A DNA stretch of 63,336 nt, filler included, from Folioceros fuciformis (Eukaryota), in the NCBI GenBank assembly GCA_049999805.1. It is 16 parts of 16 records of this genome, joined end to end, with 100 filler letters (N's around TTAATTAATTAA, not from the genome) between each part and the next. Parts side by side here need not be neighbours in the genome. Positions count along the whole stretch, not along the records: positions 16,910 to 22,486 come from JBNGIO010000742.1; 15 more parts are not named here. One strand, 5' to 3'. Below the pieces are notes generated by a model. The model did no database searches. It was not told the DNA's origin and saw only the letters and a list, made by a program, of their open reading frames with translations. Within the stretch, counting starts at the first letter, position 1. Each line of letters starts with the position of its first letter. The position numbers were made by a program, and so were the translations under genes. Of this stretch, positions 113 to 58,222 are shown in pieces.

Positions 113-1034
113 ATGGCCAGCATCAGCTCCCCGACTCCAGCACCTGCCCCTATCCCGATGTTCACTAAACAAATCAAGGAGCAGGACCGCTTCAACGGCC
201 AGCGATACCCCGTGTGGCGAGTCCGCATGAAGTCGCTGCTAGTCGGCCGCGGCGTGTGGAAGGTGGTGGACGGGAGCTACACCAAGCCGTCCCCAGCCTC
301 AGTTCCCCCGCCCTCGACTGCTGACGTGGAGTGCTGGGACTTCCTCAATGGAATTGCCATCGCGCTTATCATCAACGGCCTGGACTCTAGCCTGGTCCCC
401 AACATCAAGTTCCTCACGGAGGCCTCCGCCATCTGGGACCAGCTCGCCAAGACCTACAACGTCAACAATGTTCTGACGCTCTATGCCGTCAAGCAAGAGT
501 TCAACTCACTCAAGATGAAGGAGTCAGACACGGTGGCCACCCATTCCACAAGATTCAGGCAGCTATGCGGTTAGCTGGCCAGCCTCGGCTCGACTCTGAC
601 TGAGACAGACGCAGCGGCCCAGCTACTTATGAGCCTACCACACTCCTATCAGCATTTTGTCACCAGTTTGATGCTAATGTTGACACGTGGTACCTCCGGC
701 TCCACCTCCTCACTTACAGTGGAGGAGATTATCGGCGCACTCTATCAGCACAAGCAGAGTCGCCTTACTTTAGCAGGCGGGTCCAAGCCCAAGGCCGATA
801 AGGCGCTCGCTGCTCGTCCTAGGCCCGGGAAGGCGAATGGGCAGCAGGCCAACACCTCCAAGGGTGCTTCGACTTCGGCTCCACCTCGCCGGACGGGCAA
901 CTGTAACTGGTGTGGTACTCCCGGCCACTGGGCGCGGGAATGCCGAAAGAAGAAAGCTGGGGAGCCTCAGAAGCCTGGCCTTCGCCAAACTGCGACCGTG
1001 GCCGTTAAGGGCAAGCCCGAGGACAGCAAGACGG
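113..1034 (+). pseudogene. gag: Ty1/copia gag, interrupted
   Basis: IKEQDRFNGQRYPVWRVRM gag N-terminus; in-frame TAG at 572-574; CCHC knuckle RTGNCNWCGTPGHWAREC; homology lost near 1035. Confidence 0.9.
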
Positions 1035-2240
1035 GCCGCCATCTGATCGCTACTGGTTGCTTGCAGCTGGGTCTGCTGATCCGACCACACCGCCCTACGC
1101 CCCACCGTGGATCCACCCTAGCTAGTTCCTGCAAGCCAGGCGCTTCACCCCTGATAAAGCTTGCCATGCATTCTACTAGTTCCCCCAGCCAACCAGACTC
1201 CTTTCTGCTAGCAACCCGACCTAGCCAGTCGCCATGCCTAGTTTGCTTATGTAGCCGGCCCGCTGGCCCGCCTGCCTATAGCCCGATCGTTTTCCCCAAA
1301 TCGGCCAGGCGGCCTGCCGGCTCGCTACTCCTTTGAGCCCCAAGCGGTCAGCTTGCAGCTGGGCCGACCCGACTGCCGGCCAGGCTCCCCAGCAGCCAGG
1401 AAACCCTGGCTTGCTTCCGGTTCCCCGCCTTGCCATCCAAATCGCCCAACCCCAGGCTACCTCACCCTGGGTCCCATCGGGACCTCAGCCCAGCGCCAAA
1501 TACTTCCAGCCCGCCTTCCTGCTGAATCCGGCCCACTTTGGCCTGGCACACCACGACCTGTAGCCTCCCCTTCCCTATAGCTAACCTGCCCTGATCCATC
1601 TCAGCGGCTTGTGCAGCCCGATCCGATCGCTCGGTGACTGCATGGACCCAGCCGCCATCAACAAGTCGGGTCGCCTCCCCAAATCCCCCTGACCGGTCGG
1701 TCTGTTGGATCCAGCCCGCAACCCGCCATCAACCAGTCAGCCATAGCCCGCTCTCGACTTGCTGCCGGTTGGCTCCACCTCGGCTGACCACAGGCCGCCG
1801 GAGCGCCCCGCCACCGACCCACTTCGACCGAGCCCGATCCGTCTGCCATGCACCATGTCGGCTTCCTGCTATGCAGAGCTGTCGAGCTGCCCGCCCGTAG
1901 CCCAATTTGCTAGCAGTTCGCTGCTGGCTGATCAGCAAGGGCTTAAATGAACCTCTTGTTGGCTTCCAGACCTAGCTGTCGCCAAGCCGTCGGTCGTCCA
2001 ATTGATCCGGCCCCCCACCGTTGCAGCGAGCCTAGTGCAGCGGCACTTCAAGCCCCCTCCTCGTTCGACCGACCTGTTCCCCTCGCCTGGCTGGACAGCC
2101 ATCATCCGCGACTGTCCCCAACTGCCCGGCGTCCGACTGATCGGGACTGGATCCAGCCAACCTGCCTGCGCACTCGCCTGGATCCAGTGTTGGCCGACTA
2201 CCAGCCAGCTGCGACTAGTTGTCTGCCATTTTCCTTCCGG
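1035..2240. repeat. C-rich degenerate low-complexity region
   Basis: CCAGCC/CCGGCC/CTAGC-rich; same texture as 45720-46130 and reverse complement of 49440-51650. Confidence 0.6.
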
Positions 2241-4085: not shown

Positions 4086-4272
4086 TGAGAATGTCCACGA
4101 AGGAACTTAGGCAGCGAGAGCAGGCCGTGTTTGTACAAAACTGTATGAGTTAATTGACAAAGTATCTCATATGTTATTTATACTAAACCCTAATATCCAA
4201 AAGGTTGCAAAATATATATATATTTAACCCTAACCATAGCTAACTAAAGCTGTCCAGGGTTAATATTTGACA
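4086..4272 (-). mobile_element. 3' LTR of a minus-strand copia; PPT at 4273-4281
   Basis: Minus strand reads AAGAGGGAG|TGTCAAATA...TTCTCA; cuts the host protease at 4085. Confidence 0.85.
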
Positions 4273-4400
4273 CTCCCTCTTAAGCAGGACAAGCTTAAGT
4301 AGGTACATGTGAGATATAATGCCCAACAACCGAACTCAAACGCACTAGGACACAACAAACTCGAGCGCTCCCGGACACAGCTGAAAAACATGAGCCAGCG

Positions 4401-4637
4401 ATGGCGATTCAACTGGACACTGCCCTTGCTTATATGCTGGCAGCCTTCTTCACAATCACATGTCTGGCAATTGCTGTTGTGACGAAGATGCGAAGGGGGC
4501 ATCTGTATGCCAACAGGGCGAGTAGTGGCAGACGGCGTGCAAGGAGAAGGATGGAGTGCGGACAAGAATCCAGCTCTCAATCCACTGTCCAGGAGCCTGA
4601 AGTTGTGACTGATGGGGAGGAGCATCGAGAGAGATAG
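4401..4637 (+). CDS. 78-aa antisense ORF in a copia 3' region: hydrophobic segment then Arg-rich tail
   Basis: MAIQLDTALAYMLAAFFTITCLAIAVVTKMRRG...GRRRARRR; starts about 120 nt inside the PPT. Confidence 0.55.
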   Translation: MAIQLDTALAYMLAAFFTITCLAIAVVTKMRRGHLYANRASSGRRRARRRMECGQESSSQSTVQEPEVVTDGEEHRER

Positions 4638-4929
4638 ACTGGCTTGGTCGTTCGTCTTAGGGAGGCAGTGAAGCTCTCGGGCCAGATCAAGGAAGATGGC
4701 GAGTACGGAGGTTGAGGTGTCAAGCAGCCAGGCGATAAGGTAATCGTGGGGCTTCATCCGCATGTTGATGATCATTTCTACTGTGCAGAGCATACTGTAA
4801 CTATTGCTTAACAAAAACCAATGTTGTGTGTTTGTCACAATTCTTATAACCTGGCGGCAAAGAGGCTGTTGATCTAACATCGATATCAGGGAGCAAGGGC
4901 TCCCACCCCCCCTCTCCCACCAGATAAGT

Positions 4930-6399
4930 CTACAGTTGCTCAAACCAGCTGATCCTTGAAATATACTGAGAAATCCTGTAGACCAAGTCCTGCCATGTGT
5001 AAATAGTGCTTATATTTAAGCAGGGCTTGGTTAGAATGTCTGCAGTATTCTCCTCTGTGTTCACATAATCAACCTTCACAACTCCCCGTTCAACTACATC
5101 CCTGATGTAGTGATGCTGTATCTCGATATGCTTCGTCCTTGCGTGAAAACGAGGGTTTGCAACCAGGGCAAGTGCTAACATGTTGTCACACAAGAGTGGG
5201 GTTGCTGCTGTCTGCTGTTGACCAAGGTCTTGTAGGAAGGTACGTTCCCATTCTGCCTCTTTCGAGGCATCTGTCAAGCTTTTATATTCAGCTTATGTCG
5301 ATGATAAAGCAATTGATGTCTGCTTTTTGCAGCTCCAACTTACAGCCGCAAATGCGAATAGAAAACAGTATGTAGATAAACTCTTGCGGCTGTCATTGTC
5401 TGATGCCCAATCAGCATCAGTAAATCCCCTTAAAGTAAGCCGTCCTTGTCCACTGCTTTTATAGACAAGTTCATAGTACTGGGTCCTTTTCAAATATCTA
5501 AATACTCGTTTAGCTGCTACCCAGCGAGCTCGACCAGGTCTCTTTAGAAATTGTGACAGGGTGCTAACAGAATATTGTATATCTGGACGAGTCCAATTGA
5601 CAACAAACAGAAGACTGCCTACAGCATGACGGTAGGGGATTTCTACCATCTCTTTCTGTTCTTCAGCAGACTGAGGACATTGTAGGCTTGTAAGTTTAGC
5701 TCCTAGAGCAGATGGAGTAGATGCTGGGCGTGCCTCATTGAGCTTGAATTTATTCAGCAGCTGTTGGATATATTTATTCTGGTGTATGATGAGAAGTCCT
5801 TCAGATCTGACTCGAAGGAGCTGTATCCCTAAACAGAGTTTGAGCTCCCCTATATCTTTCATGTCGTACTTCGTGCTTAGCATCTCCTTTACGCTTGCTA
5901 ATAGCTTGTTATCATTAGTAGCCATGAGTACATCATCTACATAGAGGGCGAGTATAAGAAAGCTTGCGCCTTTTACCAGTCTATAGACATTACTGTCTGC
6001 AGCACTCTGCATGAAGGATTGGCTCAAAAGGAACACATGGATGTTCAGGTACCACACTCTGCTGCTTTGCTTTAAGCCATATATTGTCTTTAACAATTTG
6101 CAGACCTTGTTCGGGTATGCTTTATCCTCATATCCCTATGGCTATGTCATGTACAGATCCTCGTCAAGTGATCCATAGAGGAAGGCAGTATTTACATCCA
6201 TTTGATAAAGCTCTAGGTCAAATTCAGCAGCAAGGGCCAAAATCATGCGGATGGACTGTGTTCTCACGACTGGAGAAAATGTTTCTTGGTAGTCGAGACC
6301 CTCAACCTGTGTGAAGCCACGTGCCACCAACCTGGCCTTATACCTAGCAATGTCTCCTTGGGCATTGAGTTTGAGTTTGAACACCCATTTGCAAGATAT
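4930..6399 (-). pseudogene. pol: Copia RT-RNase H
   Basis: [31 protein letters not shown]; stops and frameshifts. Confidence 0.95.
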
Positions 6400-6499
6400 N
6401 NNNNNNNNNNNNNNNNNNNNNNNNNNNNNNNNNNNNNNNNNNNTTAATTAATTAANNNNNNNNNNNNNNNNNNNNNNNNNNNNNNNNNNNNNNNNNNNN
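6400..6499. other. Artificial contig spacer, first of 15
   Basis: 44N-TTAATTAATTAA-44N with stops in all six frames; other linkers start at 14547, 16854, 22531, 28555, 31314, 37455, 38571, 45539, 51701, 53855, 55941, 58267, 60376, 61834. Confidence 0.98.
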
Positions 6500-14502: not shown

Positions 14503-15121
14503 NNNNNNNNNNNNNNNNNNNNNNNNNNNNNNNNNNNNNNNNNNNNTTAATTAATTAANNNNNNNNNNNNNNNNNNNNNNNNNNNNNNNNNNNNNNNNNN
14601 NNGTAGTATTATAAAGAAGTTACCTTCTTTGGGATGGCTACCTATAGGGAGGTATGCCCACGTAGGGAGGATATCTCTGTGGGAGGTAGTACCCAAATAA
14701 GAAATATAGTTGTGAAGGGCAAGCTACCTACAGAAAAGCTACCTATGTAGGGTATCTATTAAGGGTAGTTACTACATATGGAAGTATACCTACGACAAGA
14801 GGGTATTTAAAGGGGTCCCTACCTAAGGTGTCCCATCAACGAAGGATGCTCACCTCCACGTAGGGAACTACATCTTCCTACATAGCGGGGAATAAGGAAG
14901 TAGTTGTGCGACAAGACACCTACGCCGGGGACCTACTTGTTGTGACCAAGCGAACTCAAAGAGAGAGAAAGGGCTTTGCTGTGGTGAGAGCCGTAGGGAG
15001 AAACGTGCAAGGGACGTGAAATCAGCTGCACAGAAGCTGGGAGTAGTTGCCTACGGAGGTAGGGGTATAACCTTGCGTAAAGGAGGGCAACCGACATTCT
15101 TGGGGTTTTCTTCTATCAACT

Positions 15122-16809: not shown

Positions 16810-16909
16810 NNNNNNNNNNNNNNNNNNNNNNNNNNNNNNNNNNNNNNNNNNNNTTAATTAATTAANNNNNNNNNNNNNNNNNNNNNNNNNNNNNNNNNNN
16901 NNNNNNNNN

Positions 16910-17450
16910 GTGGAGTTTGGATTTGGCTGGAGAGTTACCAGTCACACGTAGAGGTTCTAAATATGTGTTGGTAATGATAGAACATTTCTCTAAGTGGATA
17001 GTTTTGGTTCCTTTAAGAGAGAAGAAGGCACATGACATTAAGGAAGCGTTTCTTAATCATGTATTGAGCAATTTTGGGGCATGTGCAGAAGTTTTGACAA
17101 ATCAAGGTACTGAGTTTATGGGAGATTTTGATGAATTTTCAAATGAATATCTTATTAACCATAGGGTTACTTAAAGGAATCATCCAGAGGTTGATGGTTT
17201 GGCGGAGAGAATGGTATAAACATGCAAGAGGGCTTTGAGAAAGTATTGTTTGGTAATGGACAAGAGTGAGTGGGATAAGATGTTACCATTTCTTGTGATT
17301 GGTTATAGGATGAGCACACAAGCGTCATTGGGAAAGTTTCGCCATACATGTTGTTGTTTGGGTGGAGACCACAATAGTCTGGAATCTTGGAAGACAAGTT
17401 GAATGCTATAGTGGAGTTCGATGATCCTAATAAGTGGCTAAAGATAGTTA
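16910..17450 (+). pseudogene. pol: Ty3/gypsy integrase core fragment
   Basis: DLAGELPVTRRGSKYVLVMIEHFSKW...TNQGTEF. Confidence 0.9.
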
Positions 17451-17649
17451 TGTTGATAAATTGAATTGCGTGTATTACCACATATACACACAATTGCCAA
17501 AAGCAAAGTATTTAATTTTTGAACCTGATGTGTCTTATATACAATATATCAAGAGTCACGACTGTTCATTAATCTCTCATAATCCTAACTAGCTAACATA
17601 AGCTACGTTTATATGTATGTAACCCTAACGAGGGGTTTTACTTCAAACA
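17451..17649 (-). mobile_element. 3' LTR of the near-intact copia; PPT at 17650-17658
   Basis: TGTT...AACA termini; minus strand reads AAGGGGGAG|TGTTTGAAG. Confidence 0.9.
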
Positions 17650-17695
17650 CTCCCCCTTAAACGGAGCGCACTGTTAGCGTGGCGAAGTTGCAGCC

Positions 17696-17860
17696 ATGAC
17701 GGGATTCTTCAGCCTGAGTCTCGCAGTCTGTGCAATCGTGATTGCTGTGTCCCTCCTGTATCAACACATAAGAGAACAACAGAGAAGGCGCAGAAAGAGA
17801 GCGGGCCGCACCACCTATCAGCTGCCTTTAAGCAGCTGGAGTGAAATAACGACGGACTAG
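17696..17860 (+). CDS. 54-aa antisense micropeptide, transmembrane-like segment plus polybasic patch; below the ORF-track cutoff
   Basis: GCAGCCATGA context; MTGFFSLSLAVCAIVIAVSLLYQHIREQQRRRRKRAGRTTYQLPLSSWSEITTD*. Confidence 0.6.
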   Translation: MTGFFSLSLAVCAIVIAVSLLYQHIREQQRRRRKRAGRTTYQLPLSSWSEITTD

Positions 17861-18089
17861 ACATGGCGTCTCGCAGGCTGGGAGTGTTGACTGTGGATTG
17901 CATTTTCGGCGAAGAGAGTGCCTGAAAGGCGCCAGCAACTGACTGAAGAAAAGGTGCTGGCAGAGCAACTGAAAAGAGCAGGCGCCTGTCCACTTCTGCC
18001 TGAAAAGTGACCATAGGCACCATAAGCTGCAGTATGCGATTAGGACTGGACTGTGGAGCTTCATCCGCATCAGCTGTGGCTTGGATATG

Positions 18090-21000
18090 TCAGGATTGAG
18101 ACGGAGAACATGGTGCAACACCCATCGCCTCCATGAATTGATAATGTTTACTCGCGGGCAGGTACTTGGTCAACAAGTCTGCAGTGTTGTAATCTGTTGA
18201 GACATGCTGAAGTCGCACCACCTTCTGTTCCACTTGTTGACGAATAAAATGATGCTGCACCTCGATGTGCTTTGTTCGGGCATGGAAACGCGGGTTTGCT
18301 GTCATACTGATAGTGGAAACATTGTCGCAGTGGATAAGAGTGGGCTTTAGCTGTGGAAAACCAAGACCCTGCAGGAAGGCACGCTCCCAAATTGCTTCTT
18401 TGGCAGCTTCAGTTAGGGCTTTGTACTCTGCCTCAGTAGAGGACAGAGAAACGGAAGCCTGCTTCTTTGAGCTCCAGTGAACAACAGCATTTGAGAGAAT
18501 GAAACAGTAGGCTGATATGCTTTGTCTGGCGTCAGGGTTTGTTGCCCAATCAGCATCGGCATAACCACACACGGTAGGTGTTGTATCTCGCCCCCTGAAG
18601 CATAAGCCGTGATTCATTGTGCCTTTAAGATAGCGCAAGATACGCTTGACGGCTGCCCAGTGAACTTGGCCAGGATTGTCAAGGAACTGAGAAACCGAGC
18701 TAACAGCGTATTGAATATCAGGGCGGGTCCAACAGCTGATGTAATTCAGACAGCCAACAGCGTGACGATATGGAAACTGAGACATAGCCTGGCGCTCATG
18801 ATCATCTTGTGGACAGTCATCAGCAGAAAGCTTGAGACCTGGAACACCAGGGGTGGAAACGGGCTTGGCAGAATCAAGGTGAAAACGGCAGAGAGTTTCG
18901 GCAATATATTTGCTTTGGTGAAGCATGAGAGTCTGATCCTCCAAGTTGCGGACAAGTTGAACCCCAAGAACAAAGGTAAGAGGGCCGATGTCCTTCATGT
19001 CAAACTGTTGGTGCAGCATGCCCTTGACCCAGGCAAGTAACTCAGAGTTGTTTGATGCCAGAATAGCGTCATCAACGTACAAGGCCAGTATGACGAGATG
19101 ACCTCCTTTGGTATATATATACACGTTGGCATCACCAGGGTTCTGCACGAAACCAATGGACTGCAAATACTTGTCGATGGTTTTGTACCATTCCCGGGCG
19201 GATTGCTTAAGACCGTAAATGGTCTTCTTTAAACGGCACACCCAGGTAGGATGGTCTGGAGCAATAAAACCTTCAGGTTGCTGCATATAGATGTCCTCGT
19301 CAAGCTCACCGTACAGAAAGGCGGTACACACGTCCATCTGTTGCAAGTCCCAAGCATTGGCAGCGGCGAGGGCAAGTATCATTCTGATGGACTGGGTTTT
19401 GACGACAGGACTGAAGGTCTCTTGAAAATCAACACCGGGAATCTGAGTAAAACCCCGAGCCACAAGACGGGATTTGTATCTAGCAATCTCCCCTTTTTCA
19501 TTCAGTTTATGCTTGAAAACCCACTTACAACTGACAGTTTTGCGGCCAACAGGCAGAGGACAGAGATCCCAGGTACCATTCTTGATAAGCGAGTCATACT
19601 CATCCTTGATGGATGGAATCCAGTGTGCTTTGTCTGGGCCAGTAACAGCTTCAGTGTAAGTGCGGGGCTCAGGCTTGAGAAAAGGAAACTCAGAGTTATT
19701 AGTCTTGAGAGACATGCCAGCCCTAGGACGCCGATAGTCCACAGACTGATACGGAGGCTCCTTCCAGTGAGCAGGGGGCACTCTCTCACGAGTGGGGTAC
19801 CGGTGTTCAGGCGGAGGAGCAGGAAGGGGTACATCATCATCATCAGTCACAGCAAGTTCTGGTAAAAGGTTACTGTCAGCTGAGTCGTCTGAGTGATGAG
19901 AAGCAACATCCTGCAAATCTGCTGACCCGGGAATTGACACGTCTCCTGCAGAAGCTGGATTCGCTTGATCTGCTGCAACGGAGCCAGTGTCGGTGGCAGG
20001 AATAACGTCAGGGACACCGGCAGCAGCAGCAGGAGCAACGGGTTGTGCCACCGGAAACTGCAAGAGACCAGGGTCAGGTTGGACCACTGAGCTGACATCA
20101 ATAAAATCATCCTGGGGGAACTCAGACAGGTCCTCTTCTGCACTGGCATCTGCATCGGTAAGATTCGCTGGTACAGAAAGTGTTGATTCAAAATAAGGTT
20201 TGGCAGGACTGATGAGTTCTCGAAAGGTAACACTCCTAGCGAATTGTGCTGACTGGGTGAGTGAATCATACAACTTGTAAGCTTTCGCTTCTTCACCATA
20301 CCCAACAAACAGCAGGGGTTTAGCCCGTGCATCTAACTTTCTTCGCTTTTCAGCAGGGATATATGCATAAGCAGGAGAGCCAAATACTCGAAGATGAAGT
20401 AAACTCGGCTTCCTTTGCCATATAACCTCATAAGGTGTTTTGCCATCCACAGCACTTGTCAAGAGACGATTAAGGATGTAAGTCGTAGTCACCACTGCTT
20501 CTGCCCAAAATGCTTTGCTGAGACCTGACCATTCCAGCATGCTGCGCGTCATGCCTAACAGGGTCTGGTTGCGGCGCTCAGCAACGCCATTCTGCTGCTG
20601 GGTATAAGGGACTATGAGCTGACGGACAATCCCTCGGTCAAGAAGAAACTGGTTGAAGTTGCCATGTGTAAATTCTGTACCATTATCTGAACGCAAGCAC
20701 TTCAGCTGGCGACCTGTTTGTTTCTGAACCATCTGCAGCCATTCCTGGAAGAAAGCAAAGGTGTCTGACTTCAAACGCATCGGGTAGGTCCATGAATACC
20801 TACTGAAGTCATCCGTGAGTGTAAGATAATACAAGGCACCACCTAGAGAAGGTATGTGAATCTTCCCAGAGATGTCTGCGTGCACGAGGTCCAGAATCTG
20901 AGAAGCTCTATATGCTGTCTGTTTGGGAAAGGGCACTTCCTTTTGCTTTGCTATCACACAAGCATCGCACAAAGGCAAGTCCTTGAAACATTTGGGCAGT

Positions 21001-22463
21001 GGTTCCCTGTAACAGGTTAGGTTGGACATCTTGATGAGCTTATCCCGATTGGCATGTCCTAGACGTGCGTGCCAGAGACTGGCTTGAGCAGCTTGGGTGG
21101 ACAGAGTGACATTGGCAGTGTCCACAGGTATGGCTTTTAAATCAAGTTGATATAAATCGTGCACTAAGTGTCCTGTAGCAACTACCTGACCTCTCTCCCC
21201 TCTCTTCATAAGCTCACAGCGTGAAGAAGTGAAGAGCAGATCGAAAGTGCGTAAGGACATAAGTTGGCTAACAGAAAGCAGATGTTTAGCCATGCGGGGC
21301 ACGTACAGGACGTTATCCAAGTGAAGGATGGAACCATCATGCAACATAAAGCGACAGGACCCAGAGCCTTCTATCTGCAGACCTGTACGGGTAAGTTCAT
21401 CACCCAAAAGCACTTTATCTGAAGTGGTAGATGACTGAAAATTGCTGATCAGGGACTTATCTTTGCAAATATGAGATGTAGCTCCTGAATCTAAATACCA
21501 GCACTGTGGGGAAGGATGTGCAGAAGACACAAGACAGACTGTCATGATGACAGGTGGTTTACTTGTGATCGACTGAGAAAGCCGATCCTTGGCAGCCAAG
21601 TGTGCCTCAGCCTGTTTCAAAGGCTTCTCAGCTTTACGAGGCTCGCCAGATTTTTTCTTCCGACATTCTCTCTCCTAGTGGCCCTGTATACCACACCAGT
21701 TACAGGCGCCAGTACGTTTCACAGAAATGGTCTTCGAAGAACCTGCACCTCCACTCGAGGTAGGTTTCCTCCGGTTTTGCTTTACTTGAGTCGAAAGGAC
21801 CTCGTCTGTCCTGGTTCGTCCACCATGTAAAGTAGAAGTAGCCCTGCTTTGTTCTTCCTGTAGCAAGGCACCAATAACATCAGCCAGGTTGATGTTGGTA
21901 GGCTGACCTGCGGCCCGAGCAGCATCAGCAGCGCGAACTGTGGCACCGTAGCTGGAGACGAAAGTCTGATAGCTGGGGGGCAGACTTGTCAACAACTGAC
22001 TAACTGCATCAAGCTCCGGGAATTGAGAACCCAAGTTGATGAGTTGGGCACGAAATTGGCGAAAACGGATGACAAAAGGGGACACCTTTTCACCCTCCTT
22101 AAGACGCAGAGAGAAGAGCTCTCCTCGAACGGCACACATGGTAAGAATATTTTTGGCTTCATAAGTCTGAGTCAGGAGAGTCCAAATCTCGTCAGCCTTG
22201 GTGAGGAAGGCAACGTCTGCAAGCAGTGTCTCATCCAGTCCGCTAATTAAGACGGCGCGAGCGACATAATTCAGGTTTGCCCATTTGTCCTTTTCCTCTT
22301 GTGTGGCAGATTGTGGAGGTTCCTTAAGCGTGCCACTAACAACTCCCCAAACGTGTCTCGCTTGCAGGGCAGCTGTCATGCGCACCTTCCAACCTTCGAA
22401 TTTCATCCCATTAAATCGATCCCGCTCCTTGAACTCAAAAGAGTAGGATGGCTGAGGAATCAC
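18090..22463 (-). mobile_element. gag-pol: Near-intact copia gag-pol, one frame of about 1458 codons with a single stop
   Basis: gag, CCHC, WYLDSGATSH, integrase, YVDD and RNase H all in frame; only visible lesion is TAG at 21675-21677. Confidence 0.97.
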
Positions 22464-22675
22464 AGGTACGGCAGGGAGCGGGAGGGNNNNNNNNNNNNNN
22501 NNNNNNNNNNNNNNNNNNNNNNNNNNNNNNTTAATTAATTAANNNNNNNNNNNNNNNNNNNNNNNNNNNNNNNNNNNNNNNNNNNNCCCCCCAGCTGATG
22601 TGAATGGCTAGCAAAAAGGGAAAAGAAGCCCGATGGAACTAGGGATTGCTGCCATCAGCCTGCTGTAGGGACAGC

Positions 22676-24392: not shown

Positions 24393-24770
24393 TGTCAATA
24401 GGATCGACTCCAATCTATGTGCAAGTGTAGGAGAGGAGAGGAGAGAAGAGAGGGTGGTATTGGTAGTCACAACCAAAAACAATACACATCACCACTATCT
24501 TACTATGGAGGTCCGAGGTCTCCATTTAAGTAGTACATTTAGGGCTACACAACTTCCAAGTTCAATATGAAATAATCTACACTATCCTAAGTTCATTAAT
24601 AACTAAAACTAGTTTAGTATGAACCCAACCGGGATAACTAACACCACATGAGTTTAGCTTATATAGAGCTCGATAACTCAACACTCCCCCTCGAGCTCAA
24701 CATAGCATTTGTACGCCTAACATAGCTCGGAATTTCTTCAGCTTCTCTGCTCCCATAGGCTTAGTAAATA
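24393..24770 (-). mobile_element. Copia 3' LTR (24393-24683), PPT and RNase H tip
   Basis: TGTCAA...TCAACA; near-identical to 53268-53560. Confidence 0.9.
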
Positions 24771-25023
24771 TTAAAGGTTAGATTAGGATCGAGCAAGAGA
24801 AAGATTAGAAGAAGAGATTATTTGCATTAGGCCGTGGGCCTTAAAAAAGCGTGGAGACGACCGTTGGAGTGGTGTCCCGTGAACGGTGTCGGTTAGATTT
24901 TTAGGTCGCGACTATTAGGGGCACCGATACGAATCTAGCGATTTGTATTAGCCACTATTTGAGTTTGGCCTAATTAATTAAATAACTTAAATAACCTAAA
25001 ATGCTGGATACCCTAATTCTATA
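24771..25023 (-). mobile_element. 3' LTR of the copia at 25419-28510; PPT near 25024-25032
   Basis: Minus strand reads AAGTGGGAG|TATAGAATT; interrupts the RNase H of the previous element. Confidence 0.7.
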
Positions 25024-25105
25024 CTCCCACTTAGCCAGTATTTTGTTGGGTCACGCTTCTCGGCGCTTCGCCGCCTTCACAAAACCTTGCTTGCAATTTT
25101 GAGAG

Positions 25106-25228
25106 ATGGCGGCGACCAGGAATTTGGTGGCGGCCGCTCGCCTGCTGATGGTGATGGCACACCTGGTGATGGCGCCGCGCGCTGTATTGTGGCTGCGATT
25201 TTACAGAAGACGGCAGGCAGGTGATTAG
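25106..25228 (+). CDS. 40-aa antisense hydrophobic micropeptide with an RRR patch
   Basis: MAATRNLVAAARLLMVMAHLVMAPRAVLWLRFYRRRQAGD*; starts about 74 nt inside the PPT. Confidence 0.4.
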   Translation: MAATRNLVAAARLLMVMAHLVMAPRAVLWLRFYRRRQAGD

Positions 25229-25418
25229 AAATGTGAGTTTGCTGGTTGATCTTGCTGTCCGCTGGCTGTCCATGCGTTTAGGCCCGTCCTGACTGGCTGT
25301 TGTTGCTGGCGCAGGACCTTGGTGGAGATGCGCCACAAAGAAGCCTACCAGGAAGACCAAGTCTTGTGATGCTGCTGTAGCTGCAGGTTGTGTACTAGCT
25401 AGGTGGGTGATGCTGCAT

Positions 25419-31747: not shown

Positions 31748-34700
31748 TCACGGTCGACCCTTACAACTGCAAAAACCATCTGCGAATCGATGAACACGGT
31801 ACCCATCTCTTACAACAATGTCCCTCTGTTCAAGCCTTGACATGATCTCCGTAGAACTGTGACAGTCACTGCACATGCGGAGATTCTTTGTCACCACCAG
31901 AGGTGTCCCGCATTGAGTGTTCAGCAGGCCAAACGCCAGAGCCAGTTTCTCAGCATGCCCACAAAGCATGTCTTCCTTATCCTTCTCAGACCCTGAAGAC
32001 TCCAACACCAATTTTGTGTGAGGTACGTGGCCTCCTTGCTTCAGACGCACATTCGTGCTCTGTACCTTTGATGCAATCTCCTCTCTTCTTTCTCCCACCA
32101 CAAACGTATGTACCTCCGTCTTCACCTCAATGCTCGCTACTGCAGGTTTCTTGTTAGCTCCGGCTACCCTTCTCTGTGCTTCAATCCTGTCTACATCGCT
32201 CCACCTCCCTGCATCTGCGTAGGCATTTGCCATGAGCACATACGCAGACGCCTCCTGAGGGTGCAGCCCAACAATGCTTTCGAAACACCACATGGCTCTC
32301 TCGATATCCCCGTGGGTTTTGCAAGCATTCAGGAAAGACATAAAGCCCACAACATTATTTTGGATATCGCATGATAAGAGGACGTTCTCAGCCTCATCTA
32401 AATGCCCTGCACGCCCAAGAAGATCAATCAAGCAATTGTAGTGCTCAGTGGTAGGTTTGATGCCATATTCTTCAGCCATGGAATCAAAGAGCTTGCGACC
32501 CTCAAGCACCAGTCCCTCGTGACTGCATGCTACTAGGAGGCAAGTGAAAGTAGCCTCATCCGGCTGGATACCGGCAACTAGCATCTCCTCGAAACACGCT
32601 AGTGCTTTGTTACCTTCATCACATGCACCATATCCAAATATCAGCGCGTTCCATGTCACCACATCCTTTAACGCCAAGCTGTTAAAAACCTGACGTGCAG
32701 CCACGAGTCTCCCACATTTTGCATACATGTCCACCAGGCAGTTGCCCAATACGATATTATCCAGCAGTCCTCTTCTCACAATCTCTAAATGCAGCTGCCT
32801 GCCCTTCTCTATGGCTCCAATGCTCCCACAGGCGTTGAGAAGGGAAGCAAAAGTAACGTGGTTAGCTATTATCAGGCCCTCCTCCTCCATTCGTCCATAC
32901 AAAACAAGGCAGTCATTCCCAAGCCCTTGCTGGGCATACCCCGTAATCATCGCAGTCCATGTCACCACATTCTTCGTGGTCATGCCGTCAAAAACCCGGC
33001 GTGCATCTGTCAGTTGGCCACATTTCGCATACATGTCAACCAGGCAGTTGCCCAACACTACGTTGTCCAGCAGCCCTCTTTCGACAATCTGTGAGTGCAG
33101 CTGCTTGCCCTTCTGTAAGGCACCAGTGCTTGCACAGGCTTTAAGAAGGCAAGCAAACGTAACATCATTAGCCAAAACGAGCCCCTCTTGCTCCATTTGT
33201 CCATACACAGCAAGCGCCTCTTGGCCGTGTCCTTGCTGTGCATACCCAGCTATCAGGGCATTCCATGTCACCACATCCTTTGTGGCCAAGCTGTCAAACA
33301 ACAGACGTGCAACTTTCAGTTCGCCACATTTAGCATACATGCCCAAAAGGCAGTTGCCCACCAGCAAGTTATCCAGCAGTCCTCTTTCTACAATCAGTGA
33401 GTGCAGCTGCCTGCCCTTATGCAAGGCCCCAGCACTTGCACAGGCCTTGAGAAGGGAAGCAAAAGTGACATGGTCTGCCACAATCAAGCCCTCCTGTTCC
33501 ATTTCTTCATATAAAACAAGGGCCTCATGCCCCAGCCCCGTGTCGGCATATGCAGCAATCAGGACATTCCAGGTCACCACATCCTTTGTGGCTAAGCTGT
33601 GGAAAACCTGGCATGCATCTGGCAGTTCCCCGCATCTTGCATACATGTCTACCAGGCATGTCCCCACCGGTGCTCTATCCAGCATTCTTCGTTCGACAAT
33701 CAGGGAGTGCAGCTGCCTGCCCTTCTGTATAGCACCAGTGCGTGCACAGGCCTTGAGAAGGCAAGCAAATGTAATATGATTGGCGAGAGTAAGCCCATCC
33801 TGCTCCATTTGTTCGTACACAGCAAGAGCTTCATGCCCGAGCTCTTGCTCAGCATACCCTGCTATCAGGGCATTCCATGTCACCACATTCTTTGTGCTCA
33901 TGCTGTCAAAAACCTGGCGTGCATCTTTCATTTCACCACATTTGGCATGTCCAGATATCATGGCATTCCACGTCACCACATCCTTTTTGGCCATTCTGTC
34001 GAAAACCTGGCGTGCAGCTTTTACTTCTCCACATTTTGAATACATGTCCACCAGGCAGTTTCCAACAAATACGTTAGTTGGAATGTCACTGTGCAGCACA
34101 TCGTAGTGCACTTTTCTGCCAGATTCCAAGTCGGAAGCAAATGCGCAAGCTTGAAGCGCAGCCACAAAGACGTGACCATTCGGCTTCACTCCTGACCTAC
34201 GCATCTCATGGTAGAGTTGTATGGCCTCCTTAGCTTGCCCATGCTTTGCGTGTGCAGAGATCATGGAACACCACATGAAGGCATCTGGTCTGCGCACCCT
34301 GGTGAACACATCCATAGCCTCCTCTAGTCGACCTCCATATGCATACATGCGCAAGATATGGCTCCCCACGCATGCAATCGAATCGTACCCAAGTTTAACA
34401 CTGAGATCATGAACTCGTCTCCCAGCGACCAAATCCTTTTTCGCTGTACACAGCTTTAGCACAGTGCAGAACAGTGAGTGAGAAATAGCTGAGCGAGTCT
34501 GCGCCAGAAATTCCAGGGCTCCAACTGCCGAGGAAAGCTTGCCCTGCTGGCATAACATGCTCACGGTTCCAGCCTCTAAATGGCCCATTTCCGATCCTGC
34601 ACGCCTGCCAGGCTCAGGATTCTCCGGATAGCTGGACTTGAAACGAGAGGGAGCACGGCCCATCTGTACATCCAAGGAAACGAGCCGCTCATCAACCCAA

Positions 34701-35356
34701 GCTGGTTTGAACATATTGTTTAACCACAGGACCTCACCAGGCCCCTTACGCTGGAAGTCGGGCGACCGCAAACTCTTCTTACGTCGTCTGTCATCCCACC
34801 ACACGGTAGGGTCGAGAAAGAATTGTCGCCACAGGTGCTCCTGCTCTTGGGAACTCCCATAGCTGGAGAATCCGCTCCCACCCACACATTTTCCCGGAAA
34901 TGTAAGTGCTGGGCTCCTTTCAGGAGTGCTGCACATTGACCCCATCAAGGATCCTTCGTGGCTGCCAGGTTCAGGCATGAAGGGCTTGGAAGCAAAGGCG
35001 CCACGAGGTGAATGCATATCCAAGGAAACCAGCTGCTCATCAACCCAATCTGGCTTGAACAGATTGTCTGACCAAAGGACCTCGCCGGACCCTTTACGCC
35101 GAAAGAGAGGCGGACGGCCGCATCTGTTGTTCCACCACCTGATAGGTTCCACAAAAAGTTGTTGCCTCAAGTGATTCTGCCCCTGGCTTCGCGCATGATG
35201 GGTGGAAAGTCCGTCCCCACCCACAAATTTTCCCCGAAGCGGAAGTGCTGGTCTCTTGGTAGTGCTGCAACTGCAACTGCACCTGCACCTAGGTGCACGC
35301 GGGGGCGAGGTGGCTTGCCACACGGTGAGACTATCTGACCCGGGAAAGAACGACTC
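31748..35356 (-). CDS. PLS-class PPR-E1-E2-DYW:KP (GRP-type) organellar RNA-editing factor with two N-terminal PDF-like motifs; main exon
   Basis: About 21 P/L/S motifs, E1, E2, KPAVASIEV, HAEKLA, CSDCH, CSCKGRP*; uninterrupted frame of about 1200 codons; true start unresolved, TTTTAG acceptor at 35357. Confidence 0.96.
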   Translation of the reverse strand, partial: ESFFPGSDSLTVWQATSPPRAPRCRCSCSCSTTKRPALPLRGKFVGGDGLSTHHARSQGQNHLRQQLFVEPIRWWNNRCGRPPLFRRKGSGEVLWSDNLFKPDWVDEQLVSLDMHSPRGAFASKPFMPEPGSHEGSLMGSMCSTPERSPALTFPGKCVGGSGFSSYGSSQEQEHLWRQFFLDPTVWWDDRRRKKSLRSPDFQRKGPGEVLWLNNMFKPAWVDERLVSLDVQMGRAPSRFKSSYPENPEPGRRAGSEMGHLEAGTVSMLCQQGKLSSAVGALEFLAQTRSAISHSLFCTVLKLCTAKKDLVAGRRVHDLSVKLGYDSIACVGSHILRMYAYGGRLEEAMDVFTRVRRPDAFMWCSMISAHAKHGQAKEAIQLYHEMRRSGVKPNGHVFVAALQACAFASDLESGRKVHYDVLHSDIPTNVFVGNCLVDMYSKCGEVKAARQVFDRMAKKDVVTWNAMISGHAKCGEMKDARQVFDSMSTKNVVTWNALIAGYAEQELGHEALAVYEQMEQDGLTLANHITFACLLKACARTGAIQKGRQLHSLIVERRMLDRAPVGTCLVDMYARCGELPDACQVFHSLATKDVVTWNVLIAAYADTGLGHEALVLYEEMEQEGLIVADHVTFASLLKACASAGALHKGRQLHSLIVERGLLDNLLVGNCLLGMYAKCGELKVARLLFDSLATKDVVTWNALIAGYAQQGHGQEALAVYGQMEQEGLVLANDVTFACLLKACASTGALQKGKQLHSQIVERGLLDNVVLGNCLVDMYAKCGQLTDARRVFDGMTTKNVVTWTAMITGYAQQGLGNDCLVLYGRMEEEGLIIANHVTFASLLNACGSIGAIEKGRQLHLEIVRRGLLDNIVLGNCLVDMYAKCGRLVAARQVFNSLALKDVVTWNALIFGYGACDEGNKALACFEEMLVAGIQPDEATFTCLLVACSHEGLVLEGRKLFDSMAEEYGIKPTTEHYNCLIDLLGRAGHLDEAENVLLSCDIQNNVVGFMSFLNACKTHGDIERAMWCFESIVGLHPQEASAYVLMANAYADAGRWSDVDRIEAQRRVAGANKKPAVASIEVKTEVHTFVVGERREEIASKVQSTNVRLKQGGHVPHTKLVLESSGSEKDKEDMLCGHAEKLALAFGLLNTQCGTPLVVTKNLRMCSDCHSSTEIMSRLEQRDIVVRDGYRVHRFADGFCSCKGRP

Positions 35357-53267: not shown

Positions 53268-53810
53268 TGTCAATAGGATCGACTCCAGTCTACGTGCAAG
53301 TGTAGGAGAGGAGAGGAGAGAAGAGAGGGTGGTATTGGTGATCACAACCATGAAAACAATACACATCACCACTGTCTTACTATGGAGGTCCAAGGTCTCC
53401 ATTTAAGTAGTACATTTAGGGCTACACAACTTCCAGGTTCAATATGGGATAATCTACACTATCCTAAGTTCACTAATAACTAGAACTAGTCTAGTATGAA
53501 CCCAACTGGGATAACTAACACCACATGAGTTTAGCTCATATAGAGCTCGATAACTCAACACTCCCCCTCGAGCTCAACATAGCATCCGTACGCCTAACAT
53601 AGCTCGGAATTTCTTCAGCTTCTCTGCTCCCATTGGCTTAGTAAATATATCGGCTATCTGCTCGTCTGTGTTGACATACACAAGATCAATAGCTCCAGAT
53701 AAAATCCGTTCGCGAAGAAAATGATAATGTATTTCAATGTGTTTTGTCCTGGCATGAAACACCGGGTTTCGCGCCAACTGTATGCTGCTAAGATTGTCAC
53801 AGTAGATAAC
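53268..53810 (-). mobile_element. Copia 3' LTR (53268-53560), PPT and RNase H end
   Basis: RTKHIEIHYH...ADIFTK; pol stop abuts GAGGGGGAG|TGTTGAG. Confidence 0.92.
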
Positions 53811-55996: not shown

Positions 55997-57015
55997 ATCT
56001 AGCCTTGTATATTGATGACCTGATTCTGTCATGTAACAGTTCAGAGTTCATTAGCAAGGTAAACAACTTCTTAGCAACTAAATTTAAGATGACAAATGTA
56101 GGACCCTTGCGAAACTGTTTAGGAATCCATATACAAAGAGATAGAAGTAAGAGGACTTTAAGTCTAACTCAACCTAGGTACATTATGGAGAGTGTGGAAC
56201 AGCTAGGTCTGAAAGATGCTAAGCCTGCTTCTACCCCACTCTCAACAGGACTCAAATTAAGTAAGAGTATGAATCCTAGCACATAAGCAGACAAGGATGC
56301 TATGTCTAAGATACCTTACAGAAAAGCTGTTGGTAAGTTAATTTAGGCTACCAATACTGCACGTCTAGAAATAGCTTATGCCACCAGTGTCTTGTCACAG
56401 TATCTTGAAAACCCTGGACAGGAACATTAAACATGTTTAAAACGTGTGGAAAGAAATTTGAAAGGCACATTCAACAAGGGCATATAGTATAAGGGGAAGC
56501 ATGGTGAAGAACTTCCCTTGGCAGTATACACTGATTCAGACTATGCCGGGGAGGTTGACACCAGAAAGTCTATGTCTAGCTATGTGGTTAGCATTGATGG
56601 AGGACCTATCAGCTAGTCTAGTAAAAAGCAACCTACAGTTGCACTATCCAGCACTGAAGCAGAATACAGAGTACTTACAGCAACTGCTAAAGAGGTGATT
56701 TGGTGCAAATTATTGTTTAAGGAACTTGGCCTATCCTTTCCTACCTGCACACAAATCAGGACTGATAACCAAGGGGCGATAGTGTTAGCTCAAAACCCAG
56801 TCTTCCATTCACGCACAAAACATGTTGAAGTTGAGTATCATTTTATAAGAGACCTAGTCTCAGCTGGGTAGGTCACATTAGAGTTCATCCATATATGGCA
56901 TAATCCTGCAGATGTCCTTACAAAGCCACTGAGTAAAGACCTACATGAAAAGCATGTCCAAGCTCTAGGTCTAGGGGAGTATGCGAGCTCCTCTATTAAA
57001 AACTCTTATCTGTAG
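55997..57015 (+). pseudogene. pol: Copia RT-RNase H
   Basis: LYIDD, YTDSDYAG, ALSSTEAEY, RTKHVEVEYH. Confidence 0.93.
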
Positions 57016-57532: not shown

Positions 57533-58192
57533 CTAGAGTGGCGTGCCTAGATTTGAGACTATCCCAAGGGACACAATCTCGGTCTCCTTCCACATCATGC
57601 CACGCAGGAAGAAGGCACGAACAGCAAGAGTGTTAGCCAACAAAGGATATTTGTAGTTCGGCTCAGTAGGAGTCAGGCGCGGGGCTTTGGTCGTGGCCGT
57701 GTCCTTGGAAGCAGATTGCTTGCTTGGACCAGCCATCAGCTGTGCTCTCTTCACGATTTTCTTCATAGCCTGGCGCGCCACCAGGTTAGCAGCTTCAGCA
57801 GGACGCCCGCGAGGTTTCTTCCCAAGCTTGTTCTTTCTTCCTACAGATGCGTCACTTGCTGATGCTGGCTTGGCAGTTGTCCTAGACGAGAACCTGCCAC
57901 GCTCATCCCGCGGTGGGAGGCGCCTCTGCCTAGGACGAGGTTCACCATGAGTGCCTGGCTCCATGTTCAGCGCGTCTGTGCAAACTGACAACCACTCTTG
58001 GCAACGTATGCAGATAAAATAAATAAACAGGTGTAGTGTAGGGCAGCTAACCAAGCCTCTAGCAGTGCTCGCGATTTTATCATGTCCTCCAACAAGTCCT
58101 ATGGCGGCATAATCACAACACTTGTTGTACAAAGACAATCTGTGAGCTACAATGATTCTAGAAGATAAGGCACTACCACCAGGAACACACAT
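57533..58192 (-). CDS. Antisense ORF in a copia 3' region; basic protein with an AT-hook-like motif
   Basis: 219 codons; PRDERGRF, KKPRGRP; alternative ATG at 57964. Confidence 0.5.
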   Translation of the reverse strand: MCVPGGSALSSRIIVAHRLSLYNKCCDYAAIGLVGGHDKIASTARGLVSCPTLHLFIYFICIRCQEWLSVCTDALNMEPGTHGEPRPRQRRLPPRDERGRFSSRTTAKPASASDASVGRKNKLGKKPRGRPAEAANLVARQAMKKIVKRAQLMAGPSKQSASKDTATTKAPRLTPTEPNYKYPLLANTLAVRAFFLRGMMWKETEIVSLGIVSNLGTPL

Positions 58193-58210
58193 TCTAGTAG
58201 ATATGGCAAC

Positions 58211-58222
58211 AAGTAGGAGTGT
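58211..58222 (+). promoter_or_regulatory. Probable PPT and first bases of the 3' LTR
   Basis: AAGTAGGAG|TGT at the contig end; same pattern as other PPTs in the window. Confidence 0.65.

Follow-up and report, generated by a model that had tools for sequence, protein, structure and literature searches.

Plant long terminal repeat (LTR) retrotransposons can carry an extra open reading frame (ORF) that runs antisense and lies between pol and the 3′ LTR (aORF-3R or eORF-3′R), and such frames are described in maize Grande (gene23), rice RIRE2, Silene Retand and Phaseolus PvRetro13 (PMC7264820). In Grande, a promoter situated just upstream of the ORF drives antisense transcription, according to the accessible parts of two reports (PMC7264820, PMC11963269), and the aORF-3R products that have been studied are described there as nuclear or predicted to bind DNA (gene23, TRP28 domain; PMC11963269). 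Antisense promoters are also described within LTRs themselves (PMC7264820, PMC10186651, accessible text). The available descriptions of surveys for such ORFs give size floors of >600 bp (the Retand paper, PMC11963269) or at least 250 codons (PMC6317226). Here we analysed a stretch of 63,336 bases from Folioceros fuciformis (assembly GCA_049999805.1), hereafter the window, in which three sister Ty1/copia elements (A, B and C) each carry a small ORF (ORF1) antisense to gag-pol, located between the pol stop codon and the 3′ LTR and its polypurine tract (PPT). Almost all antisense extra ORFs of plant LTR retrotransposons come from Ty3/gypsy elements, and to our knowledge none of the extra ORFs of plant LTR retrotransposons has a known function.

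As far as the accessible descriptions of aORF-3R go, the ORFs of A, B and C resemble them in lying between pol and the 3′ LTR, in being antisense, in lacking database relatives and in recurring across related families. They differ in that the described spacers measure kilobases (2.9–6.6 kb in Retand), whereas those considered here belong to Ty1/copia elements and measure 0.4–0.7 kb, and in that they comprise 40–78 codons with a predicted membrane helix, in contrast to the nuclear or predicted DNA-binding products described so far. With 54, 78 and 40 codons in A, B and C, respectively, all three fall below the published size floors, so that ORFs this small would never have been counted in surveys of the kind cited above. 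If real, they would add a new, reduced form to the antisense extra ORFs already known from plant LTR retrotransposons.

Two further groups of known genes invite comparison. Antisense transcripts driven by the 3′ LTR are common in retroviruses, and the antisense protein of HIV-1 (ASP) is hydrophobic, membrane-associated and encoded in overlap with env, according to a paper on the subject (PMC10186651). Like ASP and HTLV-1 HBZ, in so far as these are described there, the ORFs of the present study are minus-strand ORFs near a 3′ LTR, and as in the case of ASP both strands are open over the same bases. In contrast, ASP has ~190 residues and two predicted spans and overlaps a known gene, and there is no sequence relation between it and the ORFs described here, which gave no Pfam match. 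We use the comparison with ASP and HBZ as an analogy of mechanism only, the promoter and the protein both being predicted in the elements studied here. HIV-1 Vpu, a small type III membrane accessory protein of ~80 residues, combines an N-terminal membrane helix, a basic stretch and an acidic, Ser-rich tail. The 78-residue ORF1 of B has the layout that is generally attributed to Vpu; Vpu is encoded on the sense strand and homology is not expected. On the sense strand, SIRE copia elements carry an 'env-like' ORF after pol (eORF-3′F) whose products are highly divergent between families, as stated in the available text (PMC6317226). A, B and C resemble these SIRE copias in that the spacer separating pol from the PPT holds an open sense frame, and differ from the described cases of at least 250 codons in that the frames here span 80–206 codons from their ATG, with poor codon-usage scores. 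Within a library of open-access papers, searched as main text, no paper was listed on a copia element or other retrotransposon that encodes an antisense micropeptide or an antisense ORF with a membrane span.

ORF1 of element A (17696..17860, plus strand, stop codon included) encodes a peptide of 54 residues that reads MTGFFSLSLAVCAIVIAVSLLYQHIREQQRRRRKRAGRTTYQLPLSSWSEITTD. Residues 4–22 (FFSLSLAVCAIVIAVSLLY; 17705..17761, plus strand) form its best 19-residue Kyte-Doolittle window, with a mean of 2.16 and no charged residue, and a polybasic stretch, RRRRKRAGR (residues 30–38; 17783..17809, plus strand; 7/9 residues R or K), begins 7 residues past the hydrophobic segment. An initial annotation of the window had singled out this ORF, and its existence, its layout and its antisense position within a copia element were all confirmed. 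The start codon has G at −3, which agrees with the good context claimed for it; it lies 34 nt inside the PPT rather than the ~38 nt first given. AlphaFold2, run without an alignment, modelled a helix over residues 2–35 with a pLDDT of 80–94 over the first 30 residues (80, 94 and 80 in blocks), although for a hydrophobic peptide a model built from one sequence counts as weak support.

The counterpart to which the initial annotation had pointed in a second copia element, B, is likewise real and occupies the same relative place and strand. ORF1 of B (4401..4637, plus strand) encodes 78 residues and starts 116 nt inside the PPT. Its N-terminal part is hydrophobic (best 19-residue Kyte-Doolittle mean 1.67, uncharged) and is followed by KMRRGH and GRRRARRR, and then by an acidic and Ser-rich tail. 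In the third element, C, a similar ORF of 40 residues (25106..25228, plus strand; MAATRNLVAAARLLMVMAHLVMAPRAVLWLRFYRRRQAGD) starts 71 nt inside a putative PPT, again with G at −3; its hydrophobic stretch is broken by R, H and R and is followed by RFYRRRQAG, so that it lacks the uncharged stretch of ~19 residues found in A and B. An antisense ORF of this type was thus present in 3/3 sister families whose spacers fall in the window, and in each the ATG, with G at −3, stands at the N-terminal edge of the hydrophobic part, which argues for antisense coding. A second small ORF beginning MAS does follow ORF1 in both A (17863..17925, plus strand, 20 residues, 3 nt past the ORF1 stop) and B (4696..4743, plus strand, 15 residues, 58 nt past the stop), as had been annotated; the two have only MAS in common and lie at different distances from ORF1, and we treated them as chance.

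To express the architecture as a countable property, we scored ORFs for a hydrophobic window followed by a basic cluster within 25 residues, at stringent, moderate and relaxed thresholds. Under the stringent and moderate criteria 2/376 window ORFs of at least 30 residues, and 2/444 of at least 25 residues, were recovered, and these were exactly the ORFs of A and B; the relaxed thresholds added two more, one antisense to a pentatricopeptide repeat (PPR) gene and one antisense after a fourth copia element. A loose criterion, tuned post hoc to admit C (window start in the first 15 residues, charges allowed, followed by 4 or more R or K among 7 residues), recovered 3/444 window ORFs, exactly those of A, B and C, versus 6/1960 in 80 copia loci from metagenomes. 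These loci served as a base-rate set and were the best 80 of 223 matches to the C-terminus of A pol, with 37–49% identity. Their 3′ regions could be scanned in 62 cases (18 were dropped with <300 nt downstream of pol), and by threshold gave 0, 1 and 2 matches on the antisense strand and 0, 0 and 1 on the sense strand; across all six frames of the 80 loci (290 kb) there were 0 (stringent), 2 (moderate) and 9 matches among 1960 ORFs. The nearest metagenome locus (L024) has just 16 nt after pol and lies outside the A/B/C clade.

Shuffled controls gave a similar picture. In dinucleotide shuffles (5000 per spacer) the antisense architecture arose in 0.04–0.4% of cases for A and 0–0.7% for B, and in block shuffles (15, 30 and 60 nt; 4000 each) in at most 0.35% under the moderate, 2% under the relaxed and 1.4% under the loose criterion. 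The comparison of copia spacers with shuffled controls that the initial annotation had proposed therefore placed the architecture far above its shuffle frequency. Because both the shuffles and 80 unrelated loci rarely produce it, its recurrence is not attributable to chance or composition, and we consider it probable that a frame-specific constraint acts on the 160–240 bases before the PPT.

The recurrence is accompanied by little sequence conservation. The spacer of A measures 437 nt and that of B ~670–740 nt, and at the base level they have only the PPT core and one 18-nt block in common, so that neutral inheritance cannot explain the common architecture. The block reads ATGCGGATGAAGCYCCAC on the sense strand, is 17/18 identical between A and B (E 0.007), and matched the window twice versus 0.09 matches expected; its 13-nt core was absent from all 80 metagenome copia loci. 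In A it lies at 18053..18070 (minus strand; ATGCGGATGAAGCTCCAC), in frame with ORF1 at 357 nt from its ATG, and begins a sense ORF (MRMKLH); in B it lies at 4746..4763 (minus strand), also in frame with ORF1 and 345 nt from its ATG. The similar in-frame distances imply that the stretch from ATG to block is a single module with few indels. Its role may be that of a cis-acting signal or of a start for the sense ORF.

Between the two peptides, BLASTP gave E=0.10, and Smith-Waterman alignment against residue or triplet shuffles gave a score of 38 (z 3.2–3.3, P 0.006–0.012), with collinear matches at FF, LY, RRR and TD. The codon-aligned frame on the sense strand, treated with the same triplet shuffles, gave z −0.23. 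A z of at least 3 was reached by 2.3% of random window ORF pairs (n=300), so the resemblance of A and B is mostly one of layout. The FF, Cys and IAV which the initial annotation had listed as shared residues thus reflect a resemblance that is present but weak (z 3.3, P ~0.008). MAFFT alignment of the A and B spacers was uninformative and tblastx found no match between them in either candidate frame.

On this basis we marginally prefer, at well below even odds, the reading that the spacer between pol and the PPT in the A/B/C clade encodes a small antisense extra ORF, a miniature aORF-3R. A substantial body of evidence weighs against it, part of which would suit a second explanation in which neither strand is coding and the pattern arises from pattern-seeking ascertainment together with nucleic-acid constraints before the PPT. 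On the genomic RNA such constraints could take the form of a tract rich in pyrimidines and a patch poor in T, and any antisense transcript would then exert its effect as RNA, for instance by giving rise to double-stranded RNA. The length of ORF1 is ordinary (dinucleotide shuffle P 0.51, 0.12 and 0.53 for A, B and C), the criteria were set after the ORFs had been seen, and only three elements are involved, of which B and C are decayed, with stops in pol, and A has a stop in gag. The proportion of random ORF pairs that attain the similarity of A and B points the same way, as does the statement, in the paper cited above, that antisense transcripts from retroviral LTRs are more widespread than antisense ORFs (PMC10186651).

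Coding potential was assessed by a codon-usage likelihood trained on 4465 codons of the Pfam-supported ORFs of the window, a test of weak power in which the true frame ranked first in 5, second in 3 and third in 3 of 11 held-out chunks of 140 codons. With that limit, and with results that were not consistent, the ORF1 frame ranked second (A), second (B) and fourth (C) of six, with values near zero, and the long sense frame had the poorest score of all six frames in B (−0.105) and a low one in A (−0.074), so that neither frame passes as clearly coding by codon usage. Base composition by codon position did not discriminate between the frames either. Protein searches returned no match for the A peptide, at near and longer lengths, and 0 matches for the B peptide among 1.84 billion representatives; no Pfam family lay at or near its cut-off for the ORF1 peptides. 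A protein atlas gave a best score of 0.88, to unnamed small proteins, and 0.79–0.83 for the nearest named entries, which were small bacterial membrane proteins; we regard these as leads only. Further points against ORF1 as a coding unit are that stops of its frame elsewhere in the spacer are ordinary in number (7 in A, 6 in B), that an out-of-frame ATG lies upstream in B at 4390, 11 nt before ORF1, and that C is a poor match in both its charged stretch and its similarity to A and B (z 0.9 and −0.5).

The explanation without coding must nevertheless accommodate the fact that block shuffles down to 15 nt give the architecture in at most 0.35–2% of cases per spacer, that 290 kb of other copia loci contain 0/1960 (stringent) or 2/1960 (moderate) such ORFs, and that hydrophobicity is confined to one of three frames. 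It also leaves a 249-codon sense frame in B (see below) that was matched by 0/3000 shuffles, and requires two oddities to coincide in the same three sister elements. We regard it as unlikely.

The second oddity concerns the opposite strand. In A, B and C, ORF1 is codon-aligned with a frame on the gag-pol strand, first positions of the one facing third positions of the other, and in all three elements this sense frame is +1 relative to the main frame of pol. In B it contains 0 stops in 222 spacer codons, a result matched by 0/3000 shuffles; it is open for 249 codons from stop to stop (4260–5009), and provides an ORF of 206 residues from its ATG (4260..4880, minus strand) that runs through the PPT. 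The corresponding frame of A spans 86 codons, has one stop at 17828–17830, and then continues for 56 codons to the PPT, with an ORF of 80 residues at 17828..18070 (minus strand). In C the frame is open for 128 codons in the spacer (shuffle P 0.12) and an ORF of 80 residues (25031..25273, minus strand) ends at the putative PPT. From their ATGs all three (206, 80 and 80 codons in B, A and C) fall below the 250 codons of the SIRE type. An antisense ORF alone leaves this openness unexplained. The codons TTA, CTA and TCA, which would create stops in the sense frame, occur once in the three ORF1s, versus 6.9 expected for their Leu and Ser codons from codon usage in the genes of the window (Poisson P 0.008). 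Both observations add to the case against ORF1 set out above.

They raise a different explanation, namely that the sense frame is the one under selection, that an extra ORF on the gag-pol strand fills the spacer up to the PPT, and that the micropeptide is its mirror shadow. Such an ORF would either, in A and B, start at the conserved ATGCGGATGAAG (MRMK.H..LIA) or be reached from pol by a change of frame, and the C-terminal part of its product would be Ser/Pro/Leu-rich and then hydrophilic and rich in His, Asn, Asp, Cys and Glu. Codons with T in the middle position, which are hydrophobic, face codons with A in the middle position (His, Asn, Asp, Glu, Gln, Lys, Tyr), and Arg and Lys codons face those of Ser, Pro and Leu. 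A sense product of this composition would consequently be mirrored as a helix plus arginines, and the sense segments that mirror the hydrophobic parts are indeed His/Cys-rich in all three elements (A, HSNHDCTDC; B, HLRHNSNCQTCDC; C, HHQVCHHH). The shared block supplies the sense ATG and first residues, and A and B differ there by an indel of 3 nt and by synonymous changes (CTA/CTT, GCA/GCC). Extra sense ORFs after pol are, moreover, known in SIRE copias, in the accessible account of these elements (PMC6317226).

Other properties of the sense frame speak against its selection. The A and B translations are unlike past the first 13 residues, as reflected in the negative z and in the lack of a tblastx match, and the codon-usage scores are those given above. 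The products are Cys/Ser/Leu-rich, as translations of non-coding DNA often are; they match no Pfam family, and a protein search with the 206-residue ORF of B gave 0 matches. In A the frame of pol likewise runs open for 126 codons past the pol stop, the longest sense run of that spacer (shuffle P 0.087), which implies that open sense frames are partly a matter of composition. Finally, selection on the sense frame would require an in-frame antisense ATG to have fallen by coincidence at the hydrophobic edge in all three elements.

Natural variants bear on the same question. Two DNA sequencing runs of one sample contain sequence of this region, and at 80% likeness a single run contig of 895 nt spans 17620–18514 with five differences from the window. 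Three of these fall in the spacer (T to G at 17828, T to C at both 17858 and 17888, plus strand), and all three occupy third positions of the sense frame: at 17828 the runs lack the stop that the window shows, and the remaining two changes are synonymous. In the frame of ORF1 they occupy first positions, where 17828 changes Leu45 to Val, 17858 changes the stop to Gln and adds 10 codons, and 17888 falls outside the ORF; since the stop is removed by one variant, the C-terminus and stop of ORF1 are not fixed, a further point to its detriment. The pattern favours the sense frame, tempered by the fact that the three variants are exactly 30 nt apart and may for that reason not be independent; an assembly or polishing artefact on one side is a possible source of this spacing. 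Copies 80–90% alike in pol gave no alignment across the A spacer, their joints skipping 327 and 452 bases, and the A family looks low-copy in the sampled runs. In run X3, the interval 17300–18700 showed ~300 differences, among them 120 C to T and 145 G to A, and this run looks like a bisulfite-converted library of the same sample. One run presumed to be RNA yielded no contig on this region, which counts neither for nor against expression.

In weighing the two strands, the antisense ORF has in its favour that in each of the three elements an in-frame ATG of good context stands at the hydrophobic edge, that it gives a cleaner interpretation in physico-chemical terms and that its similarity score is better, and we incline towards it marginally, well short of an even chance. 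The sense frame is favoured by being fully open (most of all in B), by the scarcity of codons that would make stops, by where the variants fall and by the conserved block at its start, and we hold its selection to be possible but doubtful. All readings beyond these two and the one without coding, taken together and including that both frames are coding, appear improbable. Of these, the use of both strands of the same 160–240 bases, codon for codon, by a sense ORF reaching to the PPT and an antisense membrane micropeptide is more improbable still, even though it would account at once for the openness of the sense frame, the scarcity within the micropeptide ORF of Leu and Ser codons that make stops, the ATGs lying in frame and the hydropathy pattern that is conserved; each frame would then constrain the other, by analogy with what is proposed for HIV-1 env and asp.

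Should the antisense ORF be the selected frame, as we marginally prefer, we would envisage antisense transcription that starts in the PPT region or at the 3′ LTR's inner (U3-side) end, and translation from the ATG with a purine at −3. The predicted product would be a single-pass peptide whose N-terminal hydrophobic helix enters the membrane, while the arginine cluster on the C-terminal side of the helix would keep the tail cytosolic, following the positive-inside rule. Selection would act on the hydropathy pattern and not on individual residues, which would explain why A, B and C are alike in architecture with almost no common sequence. The analysis establishes the ORFs, where they lie, their recurrence above chance and, for A, a confidently predicted helix, and transcription, translation, membrane insertion and any benefit to the element are inferred. 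Of the functional antisense membrane peptide postulated in the initial annotation, the recurring architecture was upheld, clearly in A and B and more weakly in C, whereas the claim that the antisense frame is the selected one is put in question by the open sense frame and the variants; nothing was found in support of a role in cell fusion or at plasmodesmata.

If the antisense ORF is genuine, compact copia elements also bear accessory genes, current annotation of transposable elements misses small ORFs, and a hydropathy pattern has persisted among copia families with only about half of their pol residues in common. The peptide would then be a short and easily tested candidate for the action of an element on host membranes or on its own cycle. 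If instead the sense frame is real, hydrophilic segments can be mirrored as convincing 'membrane peptides', which would be a trap for micropeptide discovery.

The window is a composite of 16 contigs (1.0–8.0 kb) joined by linkers of the form N44-TTAATTAATTAA-N44 (6400–6499, 14503–14602, 16810–16909, 22487–22586 and 11 more) and does not represent one locus; as the contigs are joined artificially, adjacency across a linker is meaningless and ORFs running into one are artefacts. ORF1 of A sits in the contig at 16910–22486. Element A is a minus-strand Ty1/copia element, as assigned by its Pfam domain order of gag and then integrase before reverse transcriptase (RT). Its pol (18090..21674, minus strand) contains, in order, Pol_BBD, gag_pre-integrs, rve, SH3_retrovirus and RVT_2, covering the protease region, integrase, RT and RNase H. 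The gag gene (21675..22484, minus strand; Retrotran_gag_2) is cut by the end of the contig, and the 5′ LTR, primer binding site and target site duplication consequently lie outside the window. An in-frame stop at 21675–21677 (minus strand) falls inside the CCHC knuckle at the 3′ end of gag. Given this stop A is not intact, and its description as the most intact copia of the window holds in a relative sense only. Apart from the stop, gag and pol of A form one frame; another gag ORF, at 629–1336 (plus strand), has an uninterrupted CCHC knuckle, unlike A.

The PPT of A (17650..17661, minus strand) reads TTTAAGGGGGAG on the sense strand and equals that of B at 13/14 bases. It adjoins a TG...CA 3′ LTR of ~199 bp (17451..17649, minus strand), the sense strand reading TTTAAGGGGGAG and then TGTTTGAAG across the junction. 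A contig from a public DNA run spans exactly 17450–17649 before running into other sequence, which confirms the LTR edges. Element B is also a minus-strand copia, with its PPT at 4273..4284 (minus strand; sense CTTAAGAGGGAG) and its LTR beginning at 4272; an in-frame stop interrupts its RNase H region, where the frame also changes near the end. In C, pol ends at 25419 and the putative PPT occupies 25024–25034. In a tree of 85 pol sequences the copias of the window formed a clade of their own, with A and B as sisters, C next and no metagenome locus inside; the pol C-termini of A and B are 53% identical. A further copia element (F), with a match of <180 residues, was left out of this tree.

Several further features of the window were recorded. 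The fourth copia, D, belongs to the same clade (pol 56008–56976, plus strand) and is followed by an antisense open frame at 57533–58222 (minus strand) of 219 residues from the first ATG, or 229 codons open to the contig end. Its codon-usage score (+0.044) was the highest of six, just above that of a sense frame with 29 stops, and it gave no Pfam or atlas match. Its basic region includes KKPRGRPA, which we take to be an AT-hook-like motif. This frame could represent an antisense extra ORF of the established type, though larger, or, as the LTR lies outside the contig, part of the neighbouring sequence.

At the LTR starts of A (17621–17628), B (4185–4193 and 4226–4233) and C (25011–25017), the plus strand carries AACCCTAA or ACCCTAA, presumably the plant telomere-repeat or 'telo-box' promoter motif; it reads TTAGGGTT on the sense strand of the element and may belong to the U3 promoter. 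The 3′ LTR of A abuts an integrase core fragment that lies on the opposite strand at 16974–17171 (plus strand; rve with E 4e-5, short of the Pfam cut-off), which places A in or next to an older retroelement, and the flank at 17300–17440 is multi-copy in the sequencing runs. In F the PPT (GAGGGGGAG) comes straight after the last pol codons, without a spacer (53268–53648). The pol end and LTR start of F recur beside C at 24393–24771 with 96% identity, so a piece of an F-type element follows C. The window also contains an intact PPR protein of 1202 residues with an E motif and a DYW deaminase domain (31748–35356, minus strand), which identifies a land plant as the source and whose gene includes direct repeats of 306 nt in 4–6 copies, 62–77% alike, that correspond to blocks of PPR motifs.

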